From contig NC_090352.1 in NCBI RefSeq assembly GCF_035084215.1, forward strand, positions 18,910,001-18,974,000: a DNA stretch of 64,000 nucleotides. Reading direction: 5' to 3'. Positions within the stretch are counted from its first letter, which is position 1. Each line of letters opens with the position of its first letter. Of this stretch, positions 4,829-62,662 are shown in pieces. The translations under genes were made by a program, and so were the position numbers. The notes beneath the pieces are model-generated. The model saw nothing but the letters and a program-made list of their open reading frames with translations. It was not told the origin of the DNA and made no database searches. This DNA comes from Heptranchias perlo (Eukaryota).

Positions 4829-4993
4829 AAATGACAACCATGAAGTATATTTTTTGTGTGATATTCTAAAATAAGGGCTATCAGTGTTGGGGAACGGAAC
4901 CCCTTTGTTATTAGGTTATCAAGGACTTGCACGCAAGGTATGAAATTTACTCTATTCTATTTCAATAATATTATCTCTTAATCCAAATCTCAG

Positions 4994-7205
4994 CATAGAA
5001 TCATAGAATGGTTACACCACAGAAGGAGGCCATTTGGTCCATTGAGCCTATGCCGGCTCTCTGCAAGAGCAATCCAGCTAGTCCCACTCCCCCACTCTTT
5101 CCCCGTACCCCTGCAAATTTTTCTCCTTCAGGTACCTATCTAATTCCTTTTTGAAAGCCACAGTTGACCCTGTTTCCACCACCTTTCAGGCTGTGCATTC
5201 CAGATCATAACCACTCGCTGCGTAAAAAAGATTTTCCTCACGTCTCCTTTGGTTCTTTTGCCAATCACCTTAAACCTGTGTCCTCTGGTTTATGACCCTT
5301 CCACCTTTGTGAACAGTTTTTCTTTATTTACTTTGTCTAGACCCTTCAAGATTTTGAATACCTCTATCAAATCTCCTCTTAACCTTCTCTGCTCTAAGGA
5401 GAACAATCCCAGCTTTTTCAGTCTATCCACGTAACTGAGGTCCCTCATCCCTGGAAACATTCGAGTAAATCTTTTCTGCACCCTCTCTGAGGTCTTCACA
5501 TCCTTCCTAAAGTGCGGTGCCCAGAATTGGCAGATGACACAATACTCCAATTGTGGCCGAACCAGTGTTTTATAAAGGTTCAACATAACATCCTCGCTTT
5601 TGTACTCTATGCCTCTATTTATAAAGCCCAGGATTCCGTGTGCTTTCTTAAACGCCACTTTTCCTGTCATCTTCAAGGACCTGTGTACATATACCCCCAG
5701 GTCTCTCTGTTCCTGCACCCCCTTTAGACTTGTACCATTTAGTTTTTACTGCCTCTCCTACCAAAATATATCACCTCACACTTCTGAGTTTTAAATTTCA
5801 TCTACCATGTGTCTGCCCATTCCACCAGCCTGTCTATGTTCTCTTGAAGTCTATCACTATCCTCCTCACTAATTACTACTTCCAAGTTTTGTGTCATCTG
5901 CAAATTTGGAAATTGTGCCCTGTACACCCAAGTCAAAGTCATTAATATACATCAAGAAAAGCACTGGTCCAAGTACCGACCCCTGGAGAACTCCACTGCA
6001 TACCTTCCGCCAGTCTGAAAAACAATCATTCACCACTACCCTCTGTTTCCTATTACTTAGCCAATTTCGTATCCCTGTCACCACTGTCCCTTTATTCCGT
6101 GGGTTTCAATTTTATTGACAAGCCTATTATGTGGCACTTTATCAAACACCTTCTGGAAGTCCAGTATACAACATCAACCGCATTGCCCTCATCAAACCTC
6201 TCTGTGACCTCATCAAGAAACTCAATCAAATTAGTCAAACAGGATTTGCCTTTAACAAATCCGTGCTGGCTTTCTTTTATTAATCCACATTTGTCCAAGT
6301 GATTATTAATTTTGTCCTGGATTATTGTTTCTAAAAACTTCCCCACCACCGAGGTTAAACTGACTGGCCTGTAGTTGCTGGGTTTATCTTTACATCCTTT
6401 TTTGAACAAGGGTGTAACATTTGCAATTCTCCAGTCCTCTGGCACCACCCCTGTGTCTAAGGATGTTTGGAAGATCTTGGCCAGTACATCCGCAATCGCC
6501 ACCCTTACTTCCCTCAGCAACCTAGGAAGCATCCCATCGGACCTAGTGACTTATCTATTTTAAATACAGTCAGCCTTTCTAGTACCTCCTCTTTATCAAT
6601 TTTTATCCCATACGGTTTCTCAACTACCTCCTCTTTTACTGTGGCTTTGGCTGTATCTTCTTCCTTGGTAAAGACAGCTGCAAAGTATTCATTTAGTACC
6701 TCAGCCATGCCCTCGGCCTCCATGCGTATATCCTCTTTTTGGTCCCTAATCAGCCCCACCCCTCCTCTTACTACCCGTTTACTATTATATGCCTCTGGAA
6801 GACTTTTGGATTCCCTTTTATGTTAGCCGCCAGTCTATTCTCATACTCTTTCTTTTTGCCCCTCTTATTTCATTTTTTACTTCCCCTCTGAACTTTCTAT
6901 ACTCAGCCTGGTTCTCACTTATATTAACAACCTGACATCTGTCATACACCCCCTTTTTCTGCTTCATCTTACTCTCTGTCTCTTTTGTCACCTGGCTTTG
7001 GTTGTCCTACCTTTCCCCCTCCTGGGAATGTATCTAAACTGTACCCAGACCACCTCTTCTTTAAAGGCCACCCATTGTTCGATTACAGTTTTGCCTTCCA
7101 ATCTTTGAATCCAATTTACTCGGGCCAGATCCATTCTCAACCCACTGAAATTAGTTCTCCTCCAATTAAGTATTTTTACTCTAGATTGCTCTGTGTCCTT
7201 TTCAG
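4994..7205 (-). mobile_element. CR1 LINE (second family), ~2.2-kb 5'-truncated copy
   Basis: Tail catagaatcatagaat at 4994. RT motifs in ORFs 5290..5718, 5869..6084 (QGSVLGP, FADDTK) and 6092..6532 (NYRPVSLTS, QHGF). Confidence 0.95.
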
Positions 7206-13789: not shown

Positions 13790-15105
13790 TCAACCATGAC
13801 CATGTAACAGTGAACAGGGAGTGAATGACCATTTAATTGTGAACAGGGAGAGAATGATCATGTGATTGTGAACAGGGAGTGAAATGACCATGTAACAGTG
13901 AATAGGGAGTGAATGACATTGTAATGGTGAACAGGGAGTGAATGACCATGTATTGGTGAACAGGGAGTGAATGATCATGTAATTGTGACCATGTAACAGT
14001 GAACAGAGAGTGAATGACCATGTAACTGTGAACAGGGAGTGAATGACCATGTAATTGTGAACAGGGAGTGAATGACCATGTAATTGTGAACAGGGAGTGA
14101 ATGACCATGTAATTGTGAACAGGGAGTAAATGACCATGTAATTGTGGACAGGGAATGAATGAGCATGTAACATTGAACAGGGAGTGAATGACCATGTAAC
14201 AGTGAATAGGGAGTGAATTACCATTAAATTGTGAACAGGGAGTGAAATCACCATGTAACAGTGAACAGGGAGTGAATGATCATGTAATTGTGAACAGGGA
14301 ATGAAATCACCATGTAACAGTGAACAGGGAGTGAATGAGCATGTAACATTGAACAGGGAGTGAATGACCATGTAACAGTGAATAGGGAGTGAATGATCAT
14401 GTAATGGCGAACAGGGCGTGAATGACCATGAAATGGCGAGTAGGGTGTGAATGACCATGTAATGGTGAACAGGGAGTGAATGACCATGTAATTGTGAACA
14501 GGGAGTGAATGATCATGTAATGGCGAATAGGGTGTGAATGACCATGTAATTGTGAACAGGGAGTGAATGACCATGTAATTGTGAACAGGGAGTGAATGAC
14601 CATGTAATTGTGAACAGGGAGTGAATGATCATGTAATTGTGAACAGGGAGTGAATGATCATATAAATTGTGAACAGGGAGTGAAATCATCATGTAACAGT
14701 GAACAGGGAGTGAATGACAATGTAATGGTGAACAGTGAGTGAATGACAATGTAACTGTGAACAGGGAGTGAATGACCATGTAATGGCGAACAGGGTGTGA
14801 ATGACCATGAAATGGCAAATAGGGAGTGAATGACCATGTAATTGTGAACAGGGAGTGAATGACCATGTAATTGTGAACAGGGAGTGAATGACCATGTAAT
14901 TGTGAACAGGGAGTGAATGACCATGTAATGGTGAACAGGGAGTGAATGATCATGTAATTGTGAGCATAAAACAGTGAACAGAGAGTGAATGACCATGTAT
15001 TGTGAACAGGGAGTGAATGAGTGTGTGACAGTGAACAGGGAGTGAATGAGCATGTAACAGTGAACAGGGAGTGAATGAGCATGTAACAGTGAGCAGGGAG
15101 TGAAT
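13790..15105. repeat. Minisatellite, 29-bp unit tgtgaacagggagtgaatgaccatgtaat, about 45 copies
   Basis: The tandem unit is directly visible, with 29- and 30-bp variants. The overlapping periodic ORFs are artefacts of the repeat. Confidence 0.97.
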
Positions 15106-15689
15106 TGTGCGTGCATGTGTAGCTCTTGGCATCAGCAACATTGTACAGTTCAAATGTGTAACAGCTTCACAATATATTCTCTTAATTTATGTGCAAACAG
15201 ATAAGATGGATGACAATGGCGGTGTTAATAATTCAGTCAAATGTTATTTAATATATTTCTATGCTGCAATGACTTATTCATCAGCTTTGATAAGAAAGCA
15301 GTACTTTGGCAATAGTGTTTCTATTATTGAGATATTACTCTCAGTGATGACACATCACATGCATGAAGTCTAAGAGAATTGTAGATGATTTGACAACCAA
15401 ACCAATCATCATACTATAGACTTCCATTGACTGTTCGGCATGGAATATCATTCTTTGATTTACGATTTAAGCCATGACCGTCTAAAGCCACTCTAGCTTT
15501 TCTAATTGTAATACCACAGGGCAGCACCTTTAGTCTAATTATTTAAAACTGATGGTAATATTGTAAAATGCCCAATTTGCATTTGAAAGTGTCTGTTGCA
15601 AACCTGTTCTGACAATTTTTTTATTGCACTCCTCAGGCACCTAAGTACTTTTTTTTAAGTACATTTTCAAAATCAAATTTTAAATCTTA

Positions 15690-17850
15690 CAACATAGTAA
15701 CATAGTAATGTTTTGGATAGGAGGAGACCATTGGTCCAACTAGCCTACCCTTCCCAAACTTCCCATCAGAATCCTTCCTGTGATTATAACACTAATATTT
15801 CTTTTGCTCGGATCAGCTCTCGGTCCGCAGATTGATGAGCATCTGCGACCAGTTCGAACTGGCCTCGGGGGCCAGGGTAAATCGTAGCAAGAGCGAGGCC
15901 ATGTTCTTTGGGAACTGGACCGACCGATCCTTTGTCCCCTTCACCGTCAGGTCGGATTACCTGAAGGTGCTGGGGATCTGGTTCGGGGGGGCCGGGGCGT
16001 GCACCAAAAACTGGGAGGAGCGTATATCCAAGGTTAAGCAGAAACTGGGACTGTGGGATCGACGATCCCTCTCGATCGTGGGCAAGAACCTGGTCATCAG
16101 GTGCGAAGTGCTCTCGGTGTTGCTGTACGTGACGCAGGTCTGGCCCATACCTCGCTCCTGCGCCGCGACAGTCACCCGAGCCATCTTCCGCTTTGTCTGG
16201 AGATCAAAAACGGACCGTGTCCGCAGGGTCACGATGTACAAACCTCCGGAGAAAGGGGGAAAGGCGTGCCCAACGTGGCCCTCATCCTGATGGCCACCTT
16301 TGTGTGCGGCTGCATCAAGCTGTGCATAGACCCTCAGTACGTAAACACAAAGTGTCACTACGTGCTGAGGTTCTACCTGTCCCCGGTGTTGAGAAGGATG
16401 GGCCTGGCCACGCTGCCACGGAACGCTCCGTCCAGTTGGACCGTTCCGCCCCACCTGTCCTTCGTGGAAAGGTTTGTGCAGAAAAACACCTTTGACCACA
16501 GGCGATCAGCAAGTGGTCCGCACGTAACGTCCTCGAGACCCTGCGGGAAAAGGAGATGGTGGATCCTGTCGGTTGGTTCCCCGAGCAGACTGTCAATGTC
16601 ATTTGGCAGAACGCCTCATCACCAGAGCTTTCAAACAAGCACCAAGACCTAGCTTGGCTGGTGGTGAGAAGGGCCCTTCCCGTCAGATCCTTCATGTACT
16701 CCCGGACTCTCAGCGCCACCGCGCGCTGTCCCAGAGGAGGCTGCGGTGGAGACGAGACCGTCACCCATCTCCTTCTGGAATGTGCCTTTGCAAAGAAGGT
16801 CTGGAGAGAGATGCAGTGGTATCTGTCCAGGTTCGTCCCGAGCAGTTCCGTAACACAGGATTCTGTGCTCTACGGGCTGTTCCCGGGGACGCACACTGAG
16901 ACGGATATCAGCTGCGGCTGGAAGACCATCAACTCGGTGAAAGACGCCCTTTGGTCTGCCCGAAATTTGCTGGTCTTCCAGTACAAGGAGCTGTCCTCGA
17001 CCGAGTGTTGCAGACTGGCACATTCCAAGGTCCAGGACTACGTGCTGAGGGACGCACTGAGGATGGGTGCGGCCAACGCAAAGGCCCTGTGGGGAAAGGC
17101 AACCGTTTAGAGCCTTCCCGCCATGGTATACCGAGGGGCTGCAATCAGGGAAAAACCCCCTCGGGCAGAATGTCAAATTCTAACTGATGTAATGTAACTG
17201 TAATGAATCTGTAATGAACCTGGAAAGAATCTGTAACGTACCTGTTATCAAAAATGTGTATTGAGTGTATTGCAATGAGGCACCCTAGAGTGTCATGAAC
17301 TGTAATTATGTCCAATGTGTTCATCGAACTGTACTTGATGTAACCTGCAAATTGTATAAACTGTATTGTGTACGTTTGGAATGTGATATGACAACTGTAT
17401 TTATGAACTGCTGCAAATTTTATGAATAAAGTATATTTTTTGAAAAAAAAACTAATATTTCTGTATCCCCATTTCCTTACAGGAATTCAGTCAATCCATT
17501 TTAAAACCAGCCACGGTTGTCTGTTCAGCCATCCCCAGTGATAATCTGTTCCACAATTCTATTACTCTCTTAATTTAAAAAAAATGAACAAAGTTCCCTA
17601 TTTTTCATGGACACCCTTAATTTTAAACTGTCCCCCAGTCCTCAAATCCTTCACCCAACAGAAGAATGTTCCTGGATCCCAAAATCTCCCTATCCATGAA
17701 AATCTTAAAGGCCTACATCAAGCTTTCCCTCATTGTCTTCTCCAGAGAATGAAGTCTCAGAGTGGATCTTTCCTCATTACTCAGTCCTCTTACCTCAGTA
17801 ATCATCCTTATAACCCTCCTCTGGACCTCTGGACCAACTCCAATAATTAG
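15690..17850 (-). mobile_element. Old CR1 3' fragment, host of the Tx1 insertion (pieces 15690-15802 and 17451-17850)
   Basis: Tail aacatagtaacatagtaa at about 15690. After the insertion it continues with a decayed CR1 3' region (aatctgttccacaattctattactct, ttttaaactgtccccc). Confidence 0.6.
15803..17450 (+). mobile_element. Tx1/L1-clade non-LTR retrotransposon, 5'-truncated, young
   Basis: RT C-terminus (ASGARVNRSKSEAM, YLKVLGIWF) and a zinc knuckle (CPRGGCGGDETVTHLLLEC). Stop at 17110, AATAAA at 17425, then an A-tail. 12-bp TSD actaatatttct at 15791-15802 and 17451-17462. Two -1 frameshifts, near 16260 and 16500. Confidence 0.92.
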
Positions 17851-18050
17851 AACTGTAGAGGTTTACGGCACAAAAGAATGTCAATTGCCCCATCCTGTTT
17901 GTGCCAGCTCTTTGTTGGTAGGAATCCGAAACTAATCGCGTTGCCCTGCTCTCTCCCCATAGCCCTATATCTTCCTTCTGCTTCAAATGTTCAGCCACAT
18001 TTCCCATAAAAGATGCAATGGTCTCTATCTCAACTGCTGCCTTTGCCAAA
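17848..18050 (-). mobile_element. Decayed CR1 3' end
   Basis: ORF 17795..18049 (AAVEIETIASF...HLKQK.DIGLWG) resembles the CR1 C-terminus and 3'UTR. Confidence 0.6.
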
Positions 18051-19599: not shown

Positions 19600-21446
19600 C
19601 CAGTCCACTGGCAGGAAGGATCGCGGGACCAGTACGAGAGTGCGCCGCACGCTCCCCCGACGACGCACTGGAGACCCTGGTGGAGGGGGTGGATGAAAGG
19701 AGGGCCAACATGTACCCGCAGGGAGGCTGTGGCCCAGGAAGTCAACGCCAGGAACATGGCACCACGCACCTGGATGCAGTGCTGAAAGAAGTCCAACGAC
19801 TTGACGCAAATGGTCAAGGTGAGTGAATGCAAGTGTTAAGTGGCACATCCGACCAACTGCAGCACTGCTCCACGCATCACACCCCCCATCACCCACCCAC
19901 CAACAAACACTGCCCATCCATATGCAATGCTGCACTCGGCATGCTGCATCTCACCCGCACAAAGTAAGTACCACACTTGCAGGCCACCCAACCACCACTC
20001 ACAGGTCACACACTGGCAGCTATTCAACCATGACAGGCACATCACCCAGACACCTTGTAGGATACTCACTGACATACTGCCCTCTATCTTGCATGAGAAG
20101 GTGGCACATAACAGCCGGCAGCAGGAGAGACCTGAGGGAGGACAGGCACGCCTACACGTCCTCAACCCCTTGGAGGAGACCATGCCTTGGATCAATGGGC
20201 CGGCCATCGCTGCAGCCGTGACCACATGCCACGCTGGAAGTCCCAATGAAGGGGGTCTCTGCAAAGCTAATGCTTCTTCTCGTTTCCCACATCTCCCTCA
20301 TCCCATAATCTTTTCTGACTCATGTGCTGCAGATGCTGTCAGCACGCACGTTTTACTTGCTTCTTTCCCCACTCCACAACTCAACCTGTTTCCCTTTGTC
20401 ATTGCAGATACCCAAGAACACGTGGTGGCACCGTCTGAGGAGGAGGAGGAGGAGGAGAAGGAGGAGGAGGACTCTGAAGCCACACCGTCACTCAATCTTA
20501 CATTCACATCCACCAGCTCAGAGACTGACACTGCGCGTCCTTTAGAGGTTAGTTTAGAGGAGGGATTTGCACGTAGTGAGGCATCGGGCACAGGAGCCAG
20601 GTCGGGGCGAACGGATACCACAGGTGCCAGCTTGCCGGAGGGCGAGCTCGTTCACTAGTTCTGGTAAAGAGGAGTCAGATGAGGACGTTGACGGGCCAGG
20701 CTACTGAAGACGGCTGATGGGCATACACCACCAAATGTTTGGTGCACTGGAAAGCCTGCACACAATGAAAAAGGGCATGGAGGAGTCCAGCTCCAACTTG
20801 GCACAGGGCTTTGCGCAGAGCTTGGAGCCCATCCTTTCCAACATGGACTGCGTGGTCACCTCCATCAGCACACCTGTGGAACCCACCATGATGCAACTTC
20901 TGATGGCCGATGTCACGGCATCCATTGCAGCACAAACCAATGTCATCAAAGGTCTGCAAGCTATGGTTGCTGCTCAGACTGCTGCATTGGAAGCTCAGAA
21001 TGCTGTTATCGTGGCCCTTGGATCCCCGTTCCAAGAGCGTCGCAACACTCCAGCAATCCGTTCTCCAGCAGATCACCAGGACTGCTGAGGCGCCGCCCCG
21101 GGAGAGTGGCAGTGGCGCCATGACAGTCGGACCTGCTGTCCGATCTCCGGACGACAGCATTCCTGCTCCCACTCCTGCCATTCCGCCAGTGCCCTTGTTG
21201 TTGCCTGTCGACCAGCCAGGCCAGACTGCTGCTGCCCATGCTGAGATGGTGCAGTCTGAAGCCAGGCCCTCCCGGCCCGGAGCTGCTCGAGGTCGTCCTC
21301 CAAGGCCATCTGCACCTTCCTCAATTGAAGGCCAGCAGCCTCCCACCACCCATGCTCCAGCCATTGGGGATGCACCTCGTAGGAGCACTAGGATAGGTAA
21401 AGGCACACGAACAACAGGCACTAATGCAATGCGCAAGGGTAATTAG
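19600..21446 (+). pseudogene. Harbinger Myb/SANT-like DNA-binding protein gene, spliced and decayed
   Basis: Motifs RECAARSPDDALETLVEGVDERRANMYPQGG, EVNARNMAPRTWMQC*KKSNDL and EKVAHNSRQQERPEGG, then an acidic run and a Pro-rich tail. Donor aag|gtgagt at 19819. Acceptor cattgcag at 20407. Confidence 0.85.
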
Positions 21447-21640
21447 TCCCCTTTAATTTGCATAATTTCATTCGTTAATTGATAAATGTGACTTTGAATT
21501 TGCATTTGATGGTGGTTTTTATTTGTGCGATGAGCTGAGGGGGAAAGTAATGTGCAATCAGATGGGGACAATTTGATGGTCACGTGGGGGTGGACAGGTG
21601 GGGACTGTAGGATGTTGGTGATTTTGAGATGTAGTTGACA

Positions 21641-22839
21641 TTATTGATAGCGGGCATGGATCAGGTGTGCACGCGGAGCCCTTGCAGACAAGGCGTGTGT
21701 TCCTTGTTGCCCCCTTGCGTCTTCCTCCACTTCCTGCTCCGGCTCTTCCCTCTCCTTCTCTTCAGCCTCTTCCTCCTCCTCTTCCTCCTCCTTCTCCTCC
21801 TCACCTCTGGCTCGGGGTCTTGTCTGATCATCGGTGTCAAGGACAGGCCCCTCATGATGGCACAGTTGTGCAGCATGCAGCATACCACCACGAATCTTCC
21901 CACCCACTCAGCGGTGTACTGCAGGGCTCCTCCAGAACAGTCCAGGCAGCAGAAGCATTGCTTCAGGGGGCCTATGGTGTGCTCCACAATGTTGCGTGTG
22001 GCAGCATGGCTCTCATTGTAGGCCTGCTCTGCACATGTGCGTGGGTTCCTGACTGGAGTCATGAGCCACTGCATGACGGGATAGCCCTTGTCACCCAGTA
22101 GCCAGCCTTTGACTTGCCGAGTTGGATGAAAGATAGCTGGCACGTTGGACTGCTGCATAACGAAGGTGTCATGAGGGTAGCGGGCATTGACCTCCATGAT
22201 TCGAGGGCGTGTGATCGCACACCAGCTGCACGTTCAGGGAGTGGAAGTCCTTTCGGTTGATGAAGACGGCCGAGTTGATACGGGGGGGCACATAGAACAA
22301 TGTGCGTTCAGTCAATGGCACCCTGCAGCGTGGGGAAGCCTGCAATGTGAGCAAACCTTCGTGCTCGCTGGTTCTGTTTGTCTCTATCAAGAGGGAACGT
22401 GATGAACCTGTTCCTCATCTCACACAGTGCGTCTGTGACCTCCCTTATGCAGCAGTGCACTGCATACTGCGAGATGTTGCACATATCACCAGCAGAGGCC
22501 TGAAATGATCCTGAGCCATAAAGTTCAGCGCCACAGTTACCTTCACAGCTACAGGCAATGCTCCTTGTTCTGCTCTGATGCTGCAGTTGTGGCCGGCACC
22601 AGTTGACAGATCTCCATCACGACCTCCTTGGTGAACCTTACCCATCAGATGCAATGCTCCTCGTTCAGGTTGAGGTAAGAGAATTGGTCCCTGAAGGCCC
22701 TCATTGGATTTGGCCTCCTACTCAGTGCCCTGCACCTCCTCCTCCTCCCTCTCTTCTCAGCATGACCTGCTCTGCATGGCCTCTCTGCATGCTCCCAATT
22801 GTGTTCAATGCCCAGCGGGAGCGCTAGCAGACAACCCAT
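21641..22839 (-). pseudogene. Harbinger (HARBI1-like) DDE transposase, frameshifted
   Basis: Motifs ALPVAVKVTVALNF, GFPTLQGAID*TH, NRKDFHSLNVQLVCD, GWLLGDKGYP, YNESHAATRNIVEHTIG and VVCCMLHN. Confidence 0.93.
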
Positions 22840-26785: not shown

Positions 26786-27933
26786 ATCTCCAGTCTTAAT
26801 TATTTTTTCATTTTCAGTAAATTTCTATTTGTTGCTACATTGAGTTGTCACTGAAACAGCTCATTGAGAATATGTAAAATTGTAATTTTTCTTCTAACTT
26901 TTTACCATACACTCCACCCTTGCTTGTTTGGTGTTAAATAGCTCAGGCCTGAATTTCCAAAATTGGTCTAAACATGCTGTAATCTGGGCAGGCAGGAGCA
27001 GAAATTGGGGTGGAAGTTGGTTCAGAATCATTTATTGATTTCTGACTGGACTGAATTAGTGAATGCTACTGCACTGTAAAATAAACTGCTTTGGAAATGT
27101 GTAAGTCAAGCTATTTCTCATCTGTTATTTGAAGTCAAGGTTTTTGGTTTGTTTTATTTTTCTGGAGAGGTCAAACTTCTCCCCACCCAATCCCTTCTCA
27201 GATTAACTTGTTACCCAATTTGGTTTTTCTGAGTTCTGTCACAAATTGCTTGGGTTGTTTCCTTGTATTGAGATCATGACTGACAACTTGCATCTTAACC
27301 CGAAAGCCCTGTGGAACACCAGTTCATTCGTGGTTTGGCTACTGAGACTCAGCCAATAAAATTTGTATTATCGTACTGTAGAATCGGTTAAGCAAGGTCC
27401 CCACACTTTGTTTCCTCAGTCACAATTTGTACAGGATTTGTGTTGAGTGCGTAATTTGCACACCCAAAAACAGCCAGGCATTTTATTGCGCCATTCAATT
27501 GAGAGAAATATATCATATGGCACATTTTTTTGTCATTTTTGCCCTCGCAACGCTGGGTGCAAAGGACGCTTGCATGTCAGGTATTGCTCATGCCGTAGGA
27601 GTGTATTTAAAGTTCAAAAGGTTTTGTTTCCCAATCGCAATCAGTCACACAGAGATCTAGGGGTGTGGGTACATAGATCTTTAAAGGTGGGGGTGGGGGG
27701 AAGTGCAGGTAGAAAAGGTCATAAAAAAGGCAAATGAGATTCTTTTATGGAATCAAAGAAGTTTACAGTACCGAAGGAAGCCATATAGCGCATTGTGCTG
27801 GCTCGATACGAGAGCAAGATCCAATGGTCTCTGTCTCAACCACTCCCGATATGGAGATGCCGGTGATGGACTGGGGTTGACAATTGTAAACAATTTTACA
27901 ACACCAAGTTATAGTCCAGCAATTTTATTTGAA

Positions 27934-27974
27934 ATTCACAAGCTTTCAGAGGCTTCCTCCTTCCTCAGGTGAAT
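27934..27974 (-). ncRNA. Minimal type-I hammerhead ribozyme motif, minus copy
   Basis: AUUCAC-CUGAGGA-A-GGAGG-AAG-CCUCU-GAAA-GC-UU-GUGAAU. Stem II carries one G.U wobble. Confidence 0.7.
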
Positions 27975-27999
27975 GTTGTGGAGCAATTTTATCCACAAC

Positions 28000-28040
28000 A
28001 TTCACCTGAGGAAGGAGGAAGCCTCCGAAAGCTTGTGAAT
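28000..28040 (+). ncRNA. Minimal type-I hammerhead ribozyme motif, plus copy
   Basis: Stem I AUUCAC/GUGAAU, core CUGAGGA, stem II GGAGG/CCUCC, then GAAA and a palindromic AGCU stem III. Predicted cleavage after CUU at 28034. Confidence 0.78.
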
Positions 28041-28105
28041 TTCAAATAAAATTGCTGGACTATAACTTGGTGTTGTAAAATTGTTTACAATTGTCAACCA
28101 CTCCC

Positions 28106-29215
28106 AGTAGAAAAGTGATCTATGCTCCAATAACCTCTGCATAAAGAAACTTCTCCTGACCTCTCTCCTCTTAATGACATTAATGACCCCTTGACACTGA
28201 TTCCCCAACCAGAGGAAATAGTTTTTCCGTATTCACTATAGTTTCCCATTTTATGGCATCATCCTGATGAATCTATGCTGTAACCCCTCTAGCTTTTATG
28301 TCCTCTCTACAAAGGTACACTCAGAACTGCAGAACTGTTACCTAACCAATGTTTTGTACAAATTTATCATTACTTCTTTATTCTTATACTCTATGGCCCA
28401 TTTATATGTCAAAATGATGTCAGATTTTTTTATGCCTTTATCTACCAGCATTCTCAATTTCAGGGAGTTATGTATTTGATCCCCATAGTCTTTCTGTTGA
28501 ATCACACCCTTTATTGTCTTTCCATGGAGTGCATACTCCCATTCCTTGTTTTTCCACCCTAAATATATCACCTCACACTCATCCACATTAGTATCTGTCA
28601 GCTGTCTGCCCATTGCGCTAACCTGTCTAAATCTTCCTGAAGTCTTTTATACTTTTCCTTACTGTTTGCCAAAACCTTACATTTGTATTGTCAGCAAATT
28701 TCAAGATTATGTTCCCTATACACAATTCTAAATCACTTATATGTACTGAACACCCCTTGGGCACACAACTTCCAATCCCCCTCCTATCCAACCAGCATCC
28801 ATTTACACTAATACTTTATTTCCTGTCCATCAACCAACTTTCTATCTATGCTGCTACATTTTCTCTTTTATCATATACCTGATTTTTTCTAACAAGCCTC
28901 TGTAACACACCTTAATAAATCCCTTCTAAAAATTCATATACACGACATCAACGGCGTTGTCTTTATCAATCCAATCAGTCACTTCTTCAATATTTGTCAA
29001 ACACAACTTGCCTTTAACAAATGGTGTTCTTGATTAACTCATGCAATTCAAAATGCTCACTAATTTTATCTTGAATTATAGATTCTAAAAAATTGCCCAC
29101 AACTAACTTGTCTATAGTTGCCCCAGTTTATCTTTCTCTCACTTCTTGAACAAAAGTGTTACATTAGCTACTCTCCAGTCCCATGGAACAATTTGCATAT
29201 TTATGAAGGAATATT
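28106..29215 (-). mobile_element. Old CR1 LINE (also 27770-27847, and probably resuming at about 35165-35440)
   Basis: ORF 28338..28613 (CEVIYLG, AIEYKNKEVMINLYKTLVR) and decayed RT sequence up to 29215. Confidence 0.8.
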
Positions 29216-31923: not shown

Positions 31924-33834
31924 GGGAGTTAAATTGGTTAACCCCTGAAAATGGGCTCTGGGATCGCAGTGCGTGATTAACCCGCTCCCGGTTGTTGCGA
32001 TGCAGGCAGCACGCAACATTCGTGCTGCCTGGTGATTTCAATGATTGCTGCGTGCAGCCCGCACGACCTGCGCTTTTGAGTGACTGCACGCATCAGCAGG
32101 AGTCCCCGATATCGGGAGTGGCTAGCACCACTTAAAGGCAGCCTGCACATTTTAAGGGGGAGGTGCACTGTGGCTGGAGGAAGTGGTGGAAGTGAATTGT
32201 GAAGTGAATCTGTGCTGCAATATAGTGAAACATGGTGATGATGGGAACTCTGGAATTTTTAATGAGCAACAACTTGGCTGCTCGATGTTTGAGGGACTCT
32301 GATATTTGCAAAATATAAGATATGGGTCTGAACAAAGTCTGAACGGAGATCAGAAATAGCACACGTAAAACACAGATGCAAGTCTCGTCCTTATGTTTAA
32401 AAACTATTATTTTATTTTAAAATATCAAATAAAGGTTGCTCAAAACTACATCCCACATCTTCCAATCTGCACACCAGACCTCACCAATCTGCCGATCTGA
32501 GTTTGTACCAGGCCTGCGAGACAATGTGCACCAAGGTTCTCTGATGATACACTAGAGGCCTTGGTGCAAGAGATGGACAGAAGAAGGAGCATCCTATATC
32601 CTCAGGGGGGCAAGAGGCCCTCCAGATATATGCTCGCGAGGCAGTGGGAGGCAGTAGGGGACAAAGTCAATGCCAGGAGCATAGCACCACGAACATGGAT
32701 GCAGTGCAGGAAGAAGTGCAATGATTTGACACGAGTGGTCAAGGTGCGTGACTTCAACTGTCAAGTGGCATCACCTACCAACTGCACCACGAGCCGCATC
32801 CACTGCACCATGCACTACACCCCCCATCACCCACATACCAACAAACTCTTTCAATCAGTTACTGAACTCTTCCACTCAGATGCTTCATCTCACCCTCACA
32901 CATTACCACTGTTGCAAGCCGCACACCCACAACTCACAGGTCACACGCACTGGCAGCTATTCAACCATGACAGCCACATCACCCAAACATCTTGCAGGAC
33001 ACTCACTGACACACTTCCCTCTTTCCTGCAGGAGAAGGTGGCGCATAACAGTAGGCAGCAAGTGGCAGTGGCTCCATGGAACATGAACCTGCTGTCCTCT
33101 CTCAGGAAGACAGCATTCCTGTCCCACCCCAGCCACTCCGCCAGTGCCCTTGTTGTTGTCTGTCAGCTACCCAGCCCACTCCCCGTAGAGTATTGATACT
33201 TTATTATAGGAACATAGGAACAGGAGTAGGCCATTTAGACCCTCGAGCCTGTTCCGCCATTCAACGAGATCATGTGACCTAACTCCATATATAACCTTAG
33301 CCCCATATCCGTTAATACCTTTGGTTAACAATTGAGCTAGCACCAACTGCTGTTTGTGGGAGAGAGTTCCAAACTTCCTAATTTCACTCCTGAAAGTCCT
33401 GGATCTAATTTTTAGGCTATGTCCCCTCGTCCTAGTATTCAAGTACAGGAGACCACCAAAAACAGGTACAAATGCATCAGCAGGCAGAAGCAATAATCCA
33501 GCAACTAACCTGTAACTTCCGTATGATCCCTTTAAATAGCGCTGGTAGGGAGTCCTCCATGCCGTTTAAGACCTGCTCAGCTGTGCGAGGTTAAGATAGT
33601 GCGTTGGCTGGAGCGTGGAGCTCCAAAATAACAGTGGCCCCTTTAAATCAGCGTTGAACACTGATTTACGTCATGATCGTCCTACTCTACATGCTGCAGG
33701 CGTTCGTTTGGCAAACCACTTTACCAAGATGGCGTCCTGCGCACGTCACACAAAGTTCTCGGACGCCATTTTCGGGGCTTAGCTGCCCGTGTAGCGCCTA
33801 CAGAACAGGCGCCACATGGCCCAATTTAGCCCCC
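31924..33834 (+). mobile_element. Internally deleted Harbinger of the same family as 19337-23336
   Basis: TIRs gggagttaaattgg and ccaatttagccccc (12/14). Myb exon 1 (WEAVGDKVNARSIAPRTWMQCRKKCNDL) and a GT-AG intron at 32744-33031. The transposase is deleted. The right end matches about 22900-23336. Confidence 0.88.
33205..33437 (-). mobile_element. Short CR1 3' end inside the Harbinger
   Basis: Tail ataggaacataggaacaggagtaggcc and the TRGHSLKI motif. Confidence 0.8.
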
Positions 33835-53585: not shown

Positions 53586-56500
53586 GGGATAGAAATTTGT
53601 CAAGGAAGGCAGCGCAAAATGGGCGGTACGGAATCGCCCGCCTGTTATACCCCCCGCCTGTTATACTCCCCAAACGATATACTCCCTGCCCGTTATACCC
53701 CCCGCCTGTTATACTCCCCAAACGATATACTCCCTGCCCGTTATACCCCCACCTGTTATACTCCCCACTCGATATACTCCCTGCCTGTTATACCCCCCGC
53801 CTGTTATACTCCCCAAACGATATACTCCCTGCCCGTTATACCCCCACCTGTTATACTCCCCAAACGATATACTCCCTGCCCGTTATACCCCCCACCTGTT
53901 ATACTCCCCACTCGATATACTCCCTGCCCGTTATACCCCCCACCTGTTATACTCCCCACTCGATATACTCCCTGCACGTTATACCCCCACCTGTTATACT
54001 CCCCAAACGATATACTCCCTGCCCATTATACCCCCCACCTGTTATACTCCCCACTCGATATGCTCCCTGCCTGTTATACCCCCCACCTGTTATACTCCCC
54101 ACTCGATATACTCCCTGCCTGTTATACCCCCCACCTGTTATACTCCCCAAACAATATACTCCCTGCCCTTTATACCCCCCACCTCTTATACACCCGACTC
54201 GATATACTCCCTTCCCGTTGTACATCCCACCTGTTATACACCCCGCCCCGCCCATTATAGGCCCCGCCCATTATACCTCCGCCCGATATACTCCCTGCCC
54301 ATTACACTCTAAGCCTGTTGTAACCCCATCCATTATACCCCACCTCTGATATACACCCTGCCCATTATATCCCCTGCCTGTAATACTCCCCCCCATTATA
54401 CTATATGCCTGTTATACAACCTGCCGTTATACACCCCGCCGTTATACACCCCACCCGTTATACACACCGCCCATTATACCACCCACCCGTGATACCCTAC
54501 GCCCGTTATACTCCCCCACGTTATACATCCCACCAGTTATACTCCCCGCCCGTTATGCTCCCCTGCCCGTTATACACCCCGCCCGTTATACACCCCGCCC
54601 GTTATACACCGCGCCCGTTATACACCCCGCCCGTTATACTCCCCGCCCGTTATAAACCTCGCCCGTTATACACCCCGCCCGTTATACACCCCGCCCGTTA
54701 TACTCCCCCGCCCGTTATACTCCCCGCCCGTTATACACCGCGCCCGTTATACACCCCGCCCGTTATACTCCCCGCCCGTTATAAACCTCGCCCGTTATAC
54801 ACCCCGCCCGTTATACTCCACGCCCGTTATGCACCCCGCCCGTTATACACCCCGCCCGTTATACACCCCGCCCGTTGTACTCCCCGCCCGTTGTACACCG
54901 CCCCCGTTATACACCCCGCCCGTTATACACCCCGCCCGTTGTACTCCCCGCCCGTTGTACACCGCCCCCGTTATACACCCCGCCTGTTATACTCCCCGCC
55001 CGTTATACACCGCGCCCGTTATACACCCCGCCCGTTATACTCCCCGCCCGTTATAAACCTCGCCCGTTATACACCCCGCCCGTTGTACACCGCCCCCGTT
55101 ATACACCCCGCCCGTTATACACCCCGCCCGTTGTACTCCCCGCCCGTTGTACACCGCCCCTGTTATACACCCCGCCTGTTATACTCCCCGCCCGTTATAC
55201 ACCGCGCCCGTTATACACCCCGCCCGTTATACTCCCCGCCCGTTATAAACCTCGCCCGTTATACGCCCCGCCCGTTATACTCCCCGACCGTTATACACGC
55301 CGCCCGATATACACCCCGCCCGTTATACACCCCGCCCGATATACACCCCGCCCGTTATACACCCCGCCCGATATACTCCCCGCCCGTTATACACCCCGCC
55401 CGTTATACACCCCGCCCGATATACTCCCCGCCCGTTATACACCTCGCCCGTTATACACCCCGCCCGTTATACTCCCCGCCCATTATACTCCCCGCCCGTT
55501 ATACACCCCGCCCGTTATACTCCACGCCCGTTATACTCCCCGCCCGTTATACACCCCGCCCGTTATACTCCACGCCCGTTATACTCCCCGCCCGTTATAC
55601 TCCCCGCCCTTTATACAGCTCGCCCGTTATACACCCCGCCCATTATACTCCCCGACCGTTATACACCCCGCCCGATATACACCCCGCCCGTTATACTCCC
55701 TGCCCGTTCTACACCACGCCCGATATACTCCCCGCCCGTTATACACCTCGCCCGTTATACACCCCGCCCGTTATACTCCCCGCCCGTTATAAACCTCGCC
55801 CGTTATACGCCCCGCCCGTTATACTCCCCGACCGTTATACACGCCGCCCGATATACACCCCGCCCGTTATACACCCCGCCCGATATACACCCCGCCCGAT
55901 ATACTCCCCGCCCGTTATACTCCCCGCCCGTTATACACCCCGCCCGTTATACTCCACGCCCGTTATACTCCCCGCCCGTTATACTCCCCGCCCGTTATAC
56001 AGCTCGCCCGTTATACACCCCGCCCATTATACTCCCCGACCGTTATACACCCCGCCCGATATACACCCCGCCCGTTATACTCCCCGCCCGTTCTACACCA
56101 CGCCCGATATACTCCCCGCCTGTTATACTCCCCGCCCAATATACTCCCCGCCCGTTATACACCCCGCCCGTTATGCACCCCACCCATTATACTCCCCACC
56201 CGTTATATACCGCCCCCGTTATACACCCCGCCCAATATACACCCCGCCTGATATACACCCCGCCCGTTATACTCCCTGCCCGTTATACACCCCGCCTGAT
56301 ATACACCCCGCCCGTTATACTCCCTGCCCGTTATACACCCCGCCTGTTATACTCCCCGCCCGTTATACACCCCGCCCGTTATACACCCCGCCCATTATAC
56401 ACCCCGCCCATTATACTCCCCGCCCGTTATACTCCCCGCCCGTTATACACCCTGCCCGTTATACTCCCCACCCGTTATATACCGCCCCCGTTATACACCC

Positions 56501-57354
56501 CGCCTGATATACACCCCGCCCGTTATACTCCCTGCCCGTTATACACCCCGCCTGTTATACTCCCCGCCCGTTATGCACCCCACCCATTATACTCCCCACC
56601 CGTTATATACCGCCCCCGTTATACACCCCGCCTGATATACACCCCGCCCGTTATACTCCCTGCCCGTTATACACCCCGCCTGTTATACTCCCCGCCCGTT
56701 ATACACCCCGCCCGTTATACACCCCGCCCATTATACTCCCCGCCCGTTATACTCCCCGCCCGTTATACACCCTGCCCGTTATACACCCCGCCCATCATAC
56801 TCCCCGCCCGTTATACTCCCCGCCCGTTATGCACCCCGCCCATTATACACCCCGCCCGTTATACACCCCGCTTGTTATACACCCTGCCCATTATACACCC
56901 TGCCTGTTATACACCCCGCCCGTTATACACCCCGCCCTTTATACTCCCCACCCATTATACACCCCGCCCATTATACACCCCGCCTGTTATACACCCTGCC
57001 CGTTATACACCCCGCCTGTTATACTCCTTGCCCATTATACACCCTGCCCGTTATACTCCCTGCCCGTTATACACCCCGCCTGTTATACTCCCCACCCGTT
57101 ATACACCCTGCCCGTTATACTCCCCGCCCGTTATACTCCCCGCCCGTTATACACCCCGCCCGTTATACTCCTTGCCTGTTATACACCCCACCCGTTATAT
57201 TCCCCGCCCGTTATACTCCCCGCCCGAGTAGTTCCATTGACTAATAAAATGAATTGAAATGAATATTAAGTAAGGAGTAAGACAGAGGGCCGATACAATG
57301 CCGCCCATTTAGCGCAACCCCTCCTCCACTCCCCAGAAGATGAATTTCTACTCC
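53586..57354. mobile_element. Hairpin MITE inflated by an internal minisatellite
   Basis: TIRs gggatagaaatttgtc and gatgaatttctactcc, TSD ttt. Inner arm sequence gcgcaaaatgggcggta pairs with tgccgcccatttagcgc. Confidence 0.82.
53636..57226. repeat. Minisatellite, 16-bp unit cgttatac(a/t)ccccgcc, about 225 copies; the 5' part is a 47-48-bp trimer
   Basis: The unit is directly visible. The ORFs show 16-aa periodicity (3 units = 48 nt). Confidence 0.97.
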
Positions 57355-60239: not shown

Positions 60240-62662
60240 ATAAAAAAGAACTTGCATTTATATAGCGCCTTTCACGACCTCAGGACATCCCAAAGTGCTT
60301 TACAGCCAATGAAACTTACTTGACCTTGTCCTCACCAATCTACCTGTCGCAAATGCATCTGTCCATGACAGTATTGATAGGAGTGACCATCGCACAGTCC
60401 TCGTGGAGACGAAGTCCCGTCTTCACACTGAGGACACCATCCCATGTGTTGTGTGGCACTACCACCGTGCTAAATGGGATGGATTCAGAACAGATCTAGC
60501 AGCTCAAAACTGGGCATCCATGAGGCGCTGTGGGCCATCAGCAGCAGCAGAATTGTATTCCAGCACAATCTGTAACCTCATGGCCCGGCATATTCCTCAC
60601 TCTACCATTACCAACAAGCCAGGGGATCAATCCTGGTTCAATGAGGAGTGTAGAAGAGCATGCCAGGAGCAGCACCAGGCGTACCTAAAAATGAGGTGCC
60701 AACCTGGTGAAGCTACAACTCAGGACTACATGCATGCTAAACAGTGGAAGCAACATGCTATAGACAGAGCTAAGCGATTCCACAACCAACGGATCAGATC
60801 AAAGCTCTGCAGTCCTGCCACATCCAGTCGTGAATGGTGGTGGACAATTAAACAACTAATGGGAGGAGGAGGCTCTGCAAACATCCCCATTCTCAATGAT
60901 GGTGGAGTCCAGCACGCGTTTGCAACCATCTTCAGCCAGAAGTGCCGAGTGGATGATCCATCTTGGCCTCCTCCCAATATCCCCACCATCACAGAAGCCA
61001 GTCTTCAGCCAATTCGATTCACGCCATATGATATCAAGAAACGGCTGAGTGCACTGGATACAGCAAAGGCTATGGGCCCCGACAACATCCCGGCTGTAGT
61101 GCTGAAGACTTGTGCTCCAGAACTAGCTGCGCCTCTAGCCAAGCTGTTCCAGTATAGCTACAACACTGGCATCTACCCGACAATGTGGAAAATTGCCCAG
61201 GTATTTCCTGTCCACAAAAAGCAGGACAAATCCAATTCGGCCAATTAACGCCCCATCAGTCTACTCTCGATCATCAGCAAAGTGATAGAAGGTGTCGTCG
61301 ACAGTGCTATCAAGCGGCACTTACTCACCAATAACCTGCTCACCGACGCTCAGTTTGGGTTCCGCCAGAACCACTCAACTCCAGACCTCATTACAGCCTT
61401 GGTCCAAACATGGACAAAAGAGCTGAATCCCAGAGGTGAGGTGAGAGTGACTGCCCTCGACATCAAGGCAGCATTTGACCGAGTGTGGCACCAAGGAGCC
61501 CTAGTAAAATTGAAGTCAATGGGAATCGGGGGGAAAACTCTCCAGTGGCTGGAGTCATACCTAGCACAAAGGAAGATTGTAGTGGTTGTTGGAGGCCAAT
61601 CATCTCAGCCCCAGGGCATTGCTGCAGGAGTTCCTCAGGGCAGTGTCCTAGGCCCAACCATCTTCAGCTGTTTCATCAATGACCTTCCCTCCATTATAAG
61701 GTCAGAAATGATGCTGTTCGCTGATGACTGCACAGTGTTCAGTTCCATTCCCAACCCCTCAAATAATGAAGCAGTCCGAGCCCGAATGCAGCAAGACCTG
61801 GACAACATCCAGACTTGGGCGGATAAGTGGCAAGTAACATTCGCGCCAGACAAGTGCCAGTCAATGACCATCTCCAACAAGAGAGAGTCTAACCACCTCC
61901 CCTTGACATTCAATGGCATTACCATCGCCAAATCCCCCACCATCAACATCCTGGGGCTCACCATTGACCAGAAACTTAACTGGACCAGCCATATAAATAC
62001 TGTAGCTACAAGAGCAGGTCAGAGGCTGGGTATTCTGTGGCGAGTGATTCACCTCTTGACTCCCCAAAGCCTTTCCACCATCTACAAGGCACAAGTCAGG
62101 AGTGTGATGGAATACTCTCCACTTGCCTGGATGAGTGCAGCTCCAACAACACTCAAGAAGCTCAACACCATCCAGGACAAAGCGGCCTGCTTGATTGGCA
62201 CCCCATCCACCACCCTAAACATTCACTCCCTTCACCACCGGCGCACAGTGGCTGCAGTGTGTACCATCCACAGGATGCACTGCAGCAACTCGCTAAGGCT
62301 TCTTCGACAGCACCTCCCAAACCCGCGACCTCTACCACCTAGAAGGACAAGAGCAGCAGGAACATGGGAACAACACCACCTGCACGTTCCCCTCCAAGTC
62401 ACACACCATCCCGACTTGGAAATATATCGCCGTTCCTTCATCGTCGCTGGGTCAAAATCCTGGATCTCCTTTCCTAACAGCACTGTGGGAGAACCTTCAC
62501 CACATGGACTGCAGCGGTTCAAGAAGGCAACTCACCACCACCTTCTCAAGGGCAATTAGGGATGGGCAATAAATGCCGGCCTCGCCAGCGACGCCCACAT
62601 CACATGAACGAATAAAAAAAAATACGTTTGAAGTGTAGTCACTGAGATAATGTAGGAAACAT
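60240..62662 (-). mobile_element. SacSINE1-like 3' fragment split by a LINE (60240-60312 and 62622-62662)
   Basis: ...tacagccaatgaa and atacgtttgaagtgtagtcactg... rejoin to the SINE sequence seen at 3035-3085. Confidence 0.8.
60313..62621 (+). mobile_element. CR1-group LINE, 5'-truncated, ORF2 segment nearly intact
   Basis: One frame runs from LLDLVLTN...SDH (endonuclease end) through KAMGPD, N*RPISLL, QFGF, DIKAAFDRVW, PQGSVLGP and FADD to the stop at 62559. There is a single internal stop at 61246. The tail is tgaacgaataaaaaaaaa. Confidence 0.93.

Follow-up and report, generated by a model that had tools for sequence, protein, structure and literature searches.

In a 64,000-nt stretch of the Heptranchias perlo genome (NC_090352.1, positions 18,910,001 to 18,974,000; hereafter the window), the hammerhead-bearing end of a Penelope-like element (PLE) was found twice, head to head, between 12-bp direct repeats. 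This unit was likely (probability about 0.7) produced by one insertion whose cDNA was copied back, and it is likely a dead-end copy, with both ribozymes predicted to be buried in a hairpin. Judged from its sequence, the unit represents the pLTR and one-sided tail that form the 3′ end of a very abundant Penelope-like retrotransposon, and the inverted layout is likely an ordinary insertion by-product, not a new self-spreading element.

Layout of the inverted unit and its surroundings

As shown in Table 1, the unit consisted of two 108-nt arms, 99% complementary and separated by a 9-nt spacer. A single mismatch set the arms apart: position 28026 has C, and the minus arm has T at the matching base, 27948. 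The flanking 12-bp direct repeat TCAACCACTCCC occurred just twice within the window, and its chance probability was about 3e-8 at one place and about 1e-5 over 21 × 21 offsets. Arms, mismatch and repeat had been described in an earlier reading of this DNA from its letters alone (the sequence-only reading) and were exact in the sequence. The left arm was 27 nt longer than the arm given there, the added stretch being the tail, which was present on the left arm only. The last six bases of the right arm (TCAACC) were also the first six of the right repeat copy; because TCAACC is thus element sequence as well, the putative target-site duplication (TSD) is 6–12 bp.

Table 1. Features of the inverted unit, in window coordinates
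Feature	Position	Strand	Remark
Left TSD copy	27836..27847		12 bp (6 bp if the right TCAACC is counted as element)
One-sided 3′ extension (PLE tail)	27848..27874	-	27 nt (33 nt with the right arm taken to end at 28093)
Left arm, pLTR end of Penelope-like element	27875..27982	-	Minus-strand sense; 72%/115 nt to metagenome locus L005
Minimal type-I hammerhead motif	27934..27974	-	U in place of C11.1 (27948); cut predicted 3′ of 27940
9-nt spacer	27983..27991	+	Exact copy of element-internal 27919-27927, likely templated junction filler
Right arm, inverted second copy	27992..28099	+	No tail; same start base as left arm
Intact minimal type-I hammerhead motif	28000..28040	+	Predicted cut after 28034
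Right TSD copy	28094..28105		28094-28099 doubles as 6-nt microhomology with the element

The match between the spacer and the inside of the element grew to 11 nt when one shared base on each side was included. The element contained random 9-mers of the window at a rate of 0.0018, and for shuffled spacers the rate was 0.0041; when the neighbouring base on each side was required too, the chance fell to 7e-5 (random window) and 4e-4 (shuffled). No ORF of at least 120 aa overlapped the inverted unit, and the 64-kb window held no second copy of the element and no other hammerhead motif. One difference in 108 paired positions supported a young age of the copy.

The insertion site lay in an old LINE remnant, and both flanks were colinear, not base-exact, with an old LINE copy at 4960-5450, which served as a roughly colinear empty-site comparison. 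A 32-nt match at 18010 was considered as a related site and rejected, as the match did not continue. Pieces of another high-copy repeat (28179-28237 and 27700-27750, loose-end agreement about 0.7) were part of the old LINE remnant and stood in both orientations around the site. LINE, Tx1-like and Harbinger-like remnants were found throughout the window. Ordinary mobile-element remains occupied 15796-17110, 19700-22230, 32500-33200 and 60313-62559, among them a zf-RVT ORF of Tx1-like type, pieces of Harbinger-like DDE_Tnp_4 and Myb/SANT, and a LINE ORF that was still fairly intact. The best named match of one LINE RT of the window was a chimaera protein (70%). Two long minisatellite arrays were present (53630-57230 and 13790-15110), the first giving long proline-rich open frames.

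Hammerhead motifs

On the plus arm, stem I (ATTCAC, 28000-28005, with GTGAAT, 28035-28040) enclosed the CTGAGGA core (28006-28012), one additional A (28013), stem II (GGAGG/CCTCC, loop AAG), GAAA, the palindrome AGCT (28030-28033) and H17 (T28034). The core nucleotides (C3 U4 G5 A6 N7 G8 A9, G12 A13 A14, A15.1-U16.1 and H17) were present in both arms, so that the sequence-only reading was right in placing a hammerhead on each strand. By hammerhead numbering the predicted cuts fall as given in Table 1, on the plus strand directly after H17, where that reading had put it. The extra base before stem II and the G10.1-C11.1 pair were present on the plus arm; in the minus-arm ribozyme the mismatch fell on C11.1, and G.U replaced this conserved pair.

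A hammerhead model search, suggested in the sequence-only reading, turned out negative. The window gave no Rfam match at gathering score; when 351 nt and 66 nt were searched at E up to 10, no hammerhead model appeared, and only hairpin-shaped microRNA and other models were returned, all below their cut-offs. Since no Rfam hammerhead model matches, the assignment rests on features described in PMC4209133, where metazoan PLE minimal type-I hammerheads (also treated by Lunse et al., as cited in the review PMC6765202) share the core bases, an extra base between 9 and 10.1, the G10.1-C11.1 pair and a palindromic, loop-less 15.2-16.2. The AGCU palindrome in stem III agreed with these features, as had been claimed. 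According to PMC4209133, a dimer is necessary for minimal hammerheads of this type, and in Schistosoma pairs of minimal hammerheads lie on opposite strands 100-700 bp apart. The present unit differed in that its two motifs were just 25 nt apart, with the minus-strand G.U at 10.1-11.1 and the cleavage triplet CUU. In place of a dimer, such motifs were reported to need protein help (PMC11167929).

A related pLTR next to a putative Neptune-type ORF

A pattern scan of metagenome sequence gave 13 loci. One of them, L005 on a metagenome contig, aligned from the hammerhead through the tail with 72% identity over 115 nt (E 2e-8), so that the tail was conserved there too; 11 were dismissed as chance, and the single viral locus of the pattern scan was likewise a chance match. 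The agreement of L005 in the core was no evidence, because the core had been fixed by the search pattern.

The pLTR-type end of L005 followed the stop of a GIY-YIG-containing ORF (E 7.5e-5) at a distance of 271 nt. This alignment and the adjoining ORF bore out the Penelope-like origin proposed in the sequence-only reading. An ORF with RT and C-terminal GIY-YIG was present beside the homologous pLTR in L005 and absent from this copy. The best match of the L005 ORF among seven was the shark RT-EN protein P0001 (59% identical), relatives of which were found in several sharks. The ORF carried a Cx5CxxC linker, and the RT-EN linker motif CX2-5CxxC was present in both L005 and P0001, the copy itself being without coding sequence; this linker marks Neptune and Nematis PLEs (PMC8557442). 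In these respects L005 resembled shark Neptune-type PLEs and joined this pLTR type to their endonuclease. The putative tie between the unit and a Neptune-type ORF runs via L005, that is, via the metagenome and not via DNA of this genome. Upstream of C3 in L005, TATA (39 nt) and TCACT (10 nt) were seen, resembling pLTR promoter motifs in PMC3846280.

L005 contained a head-to-head inverted RT piece of its own, 75% identical to P0001. At L005:653-1360 a plus-strand RT piece (P0001 residues 116-171) abutted an EN piece on the minus strand (about residue 467 onward), and the arms of this inversion did not overlap in the part seen. A further locus, L008, had a minimal-hammerhead-like motif with a longer stem II at 464-501 of an AT-rich contig, and no PLE ORF was recognised by eye beside this fold. 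Read by eye, pair 3 of stem II was A-U in the present unit and C-G in L005 and L008.

Related copies and their junctions

Four public runs of a single sample supplied contigs that were aligned to 27600-28349 at 82% likeness, giving 14165, 16052, 4109 and 3759 family contigs per run and so indicating a very large family. The summed depth in run X1, which is not a copy number, reached about 0.5-4.7 million in each arm bin; most of the spacer had about 950-1400 and a unique flank contig about 5. The left junction of the copy was crossed by a 1139-nt contig with 0 differences in runs X1 and X3. No empty-site joint was seen among the contigs listed. Contigs stopping before 27848 numbered 100 in X1 and 78 in X3, and their flanks were mixed (agreement 0.38-0.39). 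Their consensus ended in CAT, placing an ATG directly beyond the tail, and the MAS at the start of one related protein is in slight support of this ATG. The 5′ ends of copies clustered at 27992-28002, which may be where the promoter spacing of L005 would put the transcript start; alternatively, other subfamilies could diverge there.

Of at least 173 joints, 23 distinct and best-supported ones were taken; two go-back joints were dropped, leaving 21 head-to-head joints. Among these best-supported joints of one sample all 21 differed, indicating that the palindrome is rebuilt at each insertion. Symmetry within 7 nt was found for nine (permutation p 0.027) and within 12 nt for 11 (p 0.08); ten were clearly asymmetric. 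Since the depth of some joints was 40-180 and that of unique flank about 5-16, one junction may stand in several copies. The sequence-only reading had set a family against a one-off insertion product: the layout was not unique, as it recurred among contigs, and it was not fixed either, each occurrence having another junction.

Wherever the family varied the two arms were identical, for example at 28039, 28043 and 28055, where 36-63% of the letters in X1 were others. Only C was listed at 28026 at a frequency of at least 2%; a private CpG change therefore likely gave the minus arm its T (27948). For 28000-28036, in a set biased to contigs at least 82% alike, none of the variants listed reached 2%, and nine places varied in 28037-28063. 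The outer pairs of stem I (28037-28039) varied among contigs, while the inner CAC/GTG was mostly constant.

Predicted folding and fate of transcripts

The hairpin of the plus transcript was predicted at -201.8 kcal/mol (z = -27.8; none of 200 shuffles was as good) and that of the minus transcript at -206.2 kcal/mol, the stability of a single arm being unremarkable (z -0.7 to -1.7). Forcing the hammerhead on the full transcript cost 64.9 (plus) and 67.4 (minus) kcal/mol, and about 59 kcal/mol at the moment when stem I was just complete. Only in a transcript starting at the centre was the motif free, at a cost of 0.8. Each transcript, from either strand, contained just one hammerhead, while such motifs are reported to require a dimer (PMC4209133) or a protein (PMC11167929). 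In the head-to-head arrangement of the arms, a polymerase reading through on either strand would reach the antisense arm first. The hairpin is also favoured by about 65 kcal/mol, so that the prediction is against any competition from cleavage, whereas the sequence-only reading expected self-cleavage and hairpin to compete. The centre of the inverted unit had no TATA box and the copy had no ORF, so that only read-through would transcribe it; such a transcript is predicted to give a 108-bp hairpin (dsRNA) and no cleavage.

The modelled active dimer (-24.1 kcal/mol) was less stable than two monomers (-26.6) and a stem-II-swapped dimer (-32.9), tertiary contacts lying outside the model. That the active dimer was not the most stable form agrees with the low activity described in PMC4209133. 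Small interfering RNAs from Penelope inverted repeats were reported in Drosophila (PMC3681739), and the unit would be a plausible siRNA source. Two runs guessed to be RNA (X6 and X7) also contained family contigs, with next to none over the centre or the unique flanks. Over 27850-28099 their contig depth was weighted 3′ of the hammerhead more than that of the DNA runs, a measure that cannot rank parts; since contig depth shows no level, start or strand, nothing was concluded from X6 and X7 on expression.

Origin of the inverted unit

In the proposed course of events, the endonuclease of an autonomous Neptune-like element would nick both strands 6-12 nt apart, and the top-strand end at 27847 would prime reverse transcription at the tail without homology. 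The cDNA would run 135 nt, as far as the template's 5′ end, where the polymerase would jump, copy 9 nt from inside the element and turn back on the cDNA. The second arm would then be joined to the target via TCAACC, and one CpG would decay later. The copied 9 nt and the shared TCAACC letters were visible in the sequence. The Anolis PLE protein nicks and extends both strands; it initiates reverse transcription internally on the RNA, without homology, and its two start sites mark the limits of the tail (PMC11167929). The left junction fits this priming, because it has no homology to the target. Self-priming was proposed for palindromic junctions in PMC3846280. Copy-back is favoured here because the arms agree at all family-variable sites (up to 63%) and symmetric junctions occur at many positions. 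The shared variable letters would favour one template; the symmetry signal is weak. The spacer may be inherited from the template, since some contigs resembled it with few other letters.

A less likely course, though a serious alternative, is that the two arms were primed separately, a dimeric PLE protein nicking both strands and each 3′ end priming its own cDNA, one at the tail and the other at an inner start helped by TCAACC; both cDNAs would reach the 5′ end of the RNA and be joined end to end with a templated 9-nt filler, giving the same dead-end product. The cleavage and extension of both strands by the Anolis protein, its predicted dimer and its two start sites (PMC11167929) agree with this. 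So do the start of both arms at the same base near the presumed transcription start, the 33-nt tail that goes with a 12-bp TSD (inside the published 30-40 bp), the ten asymmetric junctions and the non-overlapping inverted piece of L005. Two independent cDNAs would not be expected to have all family-variable letters in common, nor to give near-symmetric junctions at many positions, as in nine of 21 within 7 nt, and copying back from a single cDNA is preferred on these grounds.

The young MITE-like non-autonomous family put forward in the sequence-only reading, with the whole palindrome transcribed and retrotransposed as a unit, is improbable. Its youth held good, and the clean TSD and the lack of an ORF are also what such a family would have; pLTRs suffice in cis to mobilise other sequence, as stated in PMC3846280, and some joints exceeded single-copy depth. 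The fixed palindromic layout did not hold, as the 21 junctions seen all differed. Three listed X1 contigs crossed a similar centre, but with other letters (2-9 gaps and 4-10 differing letters). The low depth over the spacer against millions on the arms, the missing TATA box in the centre and the single copy in the window also speak against a mobile palindrome, and a perfect 108-bp hairpin should be a poor template. It is even harder to credit that the palindrome is a fold-back artefact of sequencing or assembly at a single pLTR copy. None of the contigs listed spanned the copy's own centre or its right junction, as an artefact would have it, but fold-back would not be expected to leave a 12-bp duplication, a templated spacer, a one-sided tail or arms that differ at a CpG, and many analogous junctions were present in independently assembled contigs.

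Junction ends near the predicted cut

The predicted cut lies between element positions 43 and 44. When the 42 junction ends (window 27870-28056) were placed by element position, eight fell in 1-15, at the presumed transcript start, two in 16-43, 25 in 44-65 and seven beyond. The ends thus avoided the ribozyme core (2/42) and piled up just 3′ of the predicted cut (25/42). With one end counted per junction the numbers were 1 against 12 (p 4e-4 for uniform placement), in a small sample of the best-supported joints from one sample that possibly includes related copies. Snap-back microhomology of at least 3 nt was found at 3.2% in positions 16-43 and at 3.4% in 44-65; being equally available in both stretches, it does not explain the cluster. 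The A+T content was 46% in positions 16-43 against 77% in 44-65, and ATT/AAT words numbered none and five. ATT is the preferred cut of the lizard PLE enzyme (PMC11167929), and the cluster could stem from A+T richness, from ATT words or from polymerase stalling at stem I.

A tentative further idea, which we regard as unlikely, is that hammerhead cleavage in vivo has left its record in the genome as the inversion junctions of this shark family: most short insertions would come from ribozyme-cut RNA, whose free 5′ end would trigger copy-back, and copies like the present one from uncut RNA. If true, the ribozyme would cap the copy length of its own element and seed dsRNA-forming palindromes across the genome. 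According to PMC11167929, hammerhead cleavage could be dispensed with in vitro, and Anolis RNA-seq showed no cut ends. No report of this shark family or of junction clustering at the hammerhead cut was found in a literature search whose scope ended short of subscription papers, Repbase/Dfam, supplements and Lunse et al.

Comparison with known systems and significance

A hammerhead-bearing pLTR, a head-to-head inverted 5′-truncated copy and a one-sided tail, features of EN+ PLE insertions, were all found in the unit. EN+ PLE insertion units (PMC3846280, PMC8557442 and PMC8969392) have in common with it the head-to-head inverted pLTR and one-sided tail, the short TSD (putative in the unit), and also junction microhomology and 5′ truncation. 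For rotifer PLEs PMC3846280 gives an inverted pLTR, a 31-bp tail and a TSD of 8-10 bp, compared with 12 bp (or 6) here. The unit further differs in having no ORF sequence, arms that start at the same base and a templated spacer.

Non-LTR retrozymes, described also from a cartilaginous fish, are likewise short non-coding pLTR derivatives with type-I hammerheads, but they (bioRxiv 10.64898/2026.07.22.740005) form head-to-tail tandems with consecutive hammerheads on the same strand. The inverted layout of the unit, with one motif per strand, does not fit a non-LTR retrozyme. MITEs are short, non-coding, palindromic and flanked by TSDs. The unit differs from them in its retroelement sequence, in its asymmetric ends (the tail) and in that no internal structure is fixed among copies.

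Earlier publications already cover inverted pLTRs, tails, TSDs, minimal hammerheads on opposite strands and the siRNAs that Penelope inverted repeats give rise to, and the origin of tandem and inverted PLE structures is called undefined in PMC8557442. The single locus matters little, since a known retroelement class has left very many such stumps. Its value lies in being a young and clean example of a step in PLE insertion that is poorly understood, and in a genome with very many short copies both the origin of the inversion and cleavage in vivo are testable by counting junctions and arm differences.
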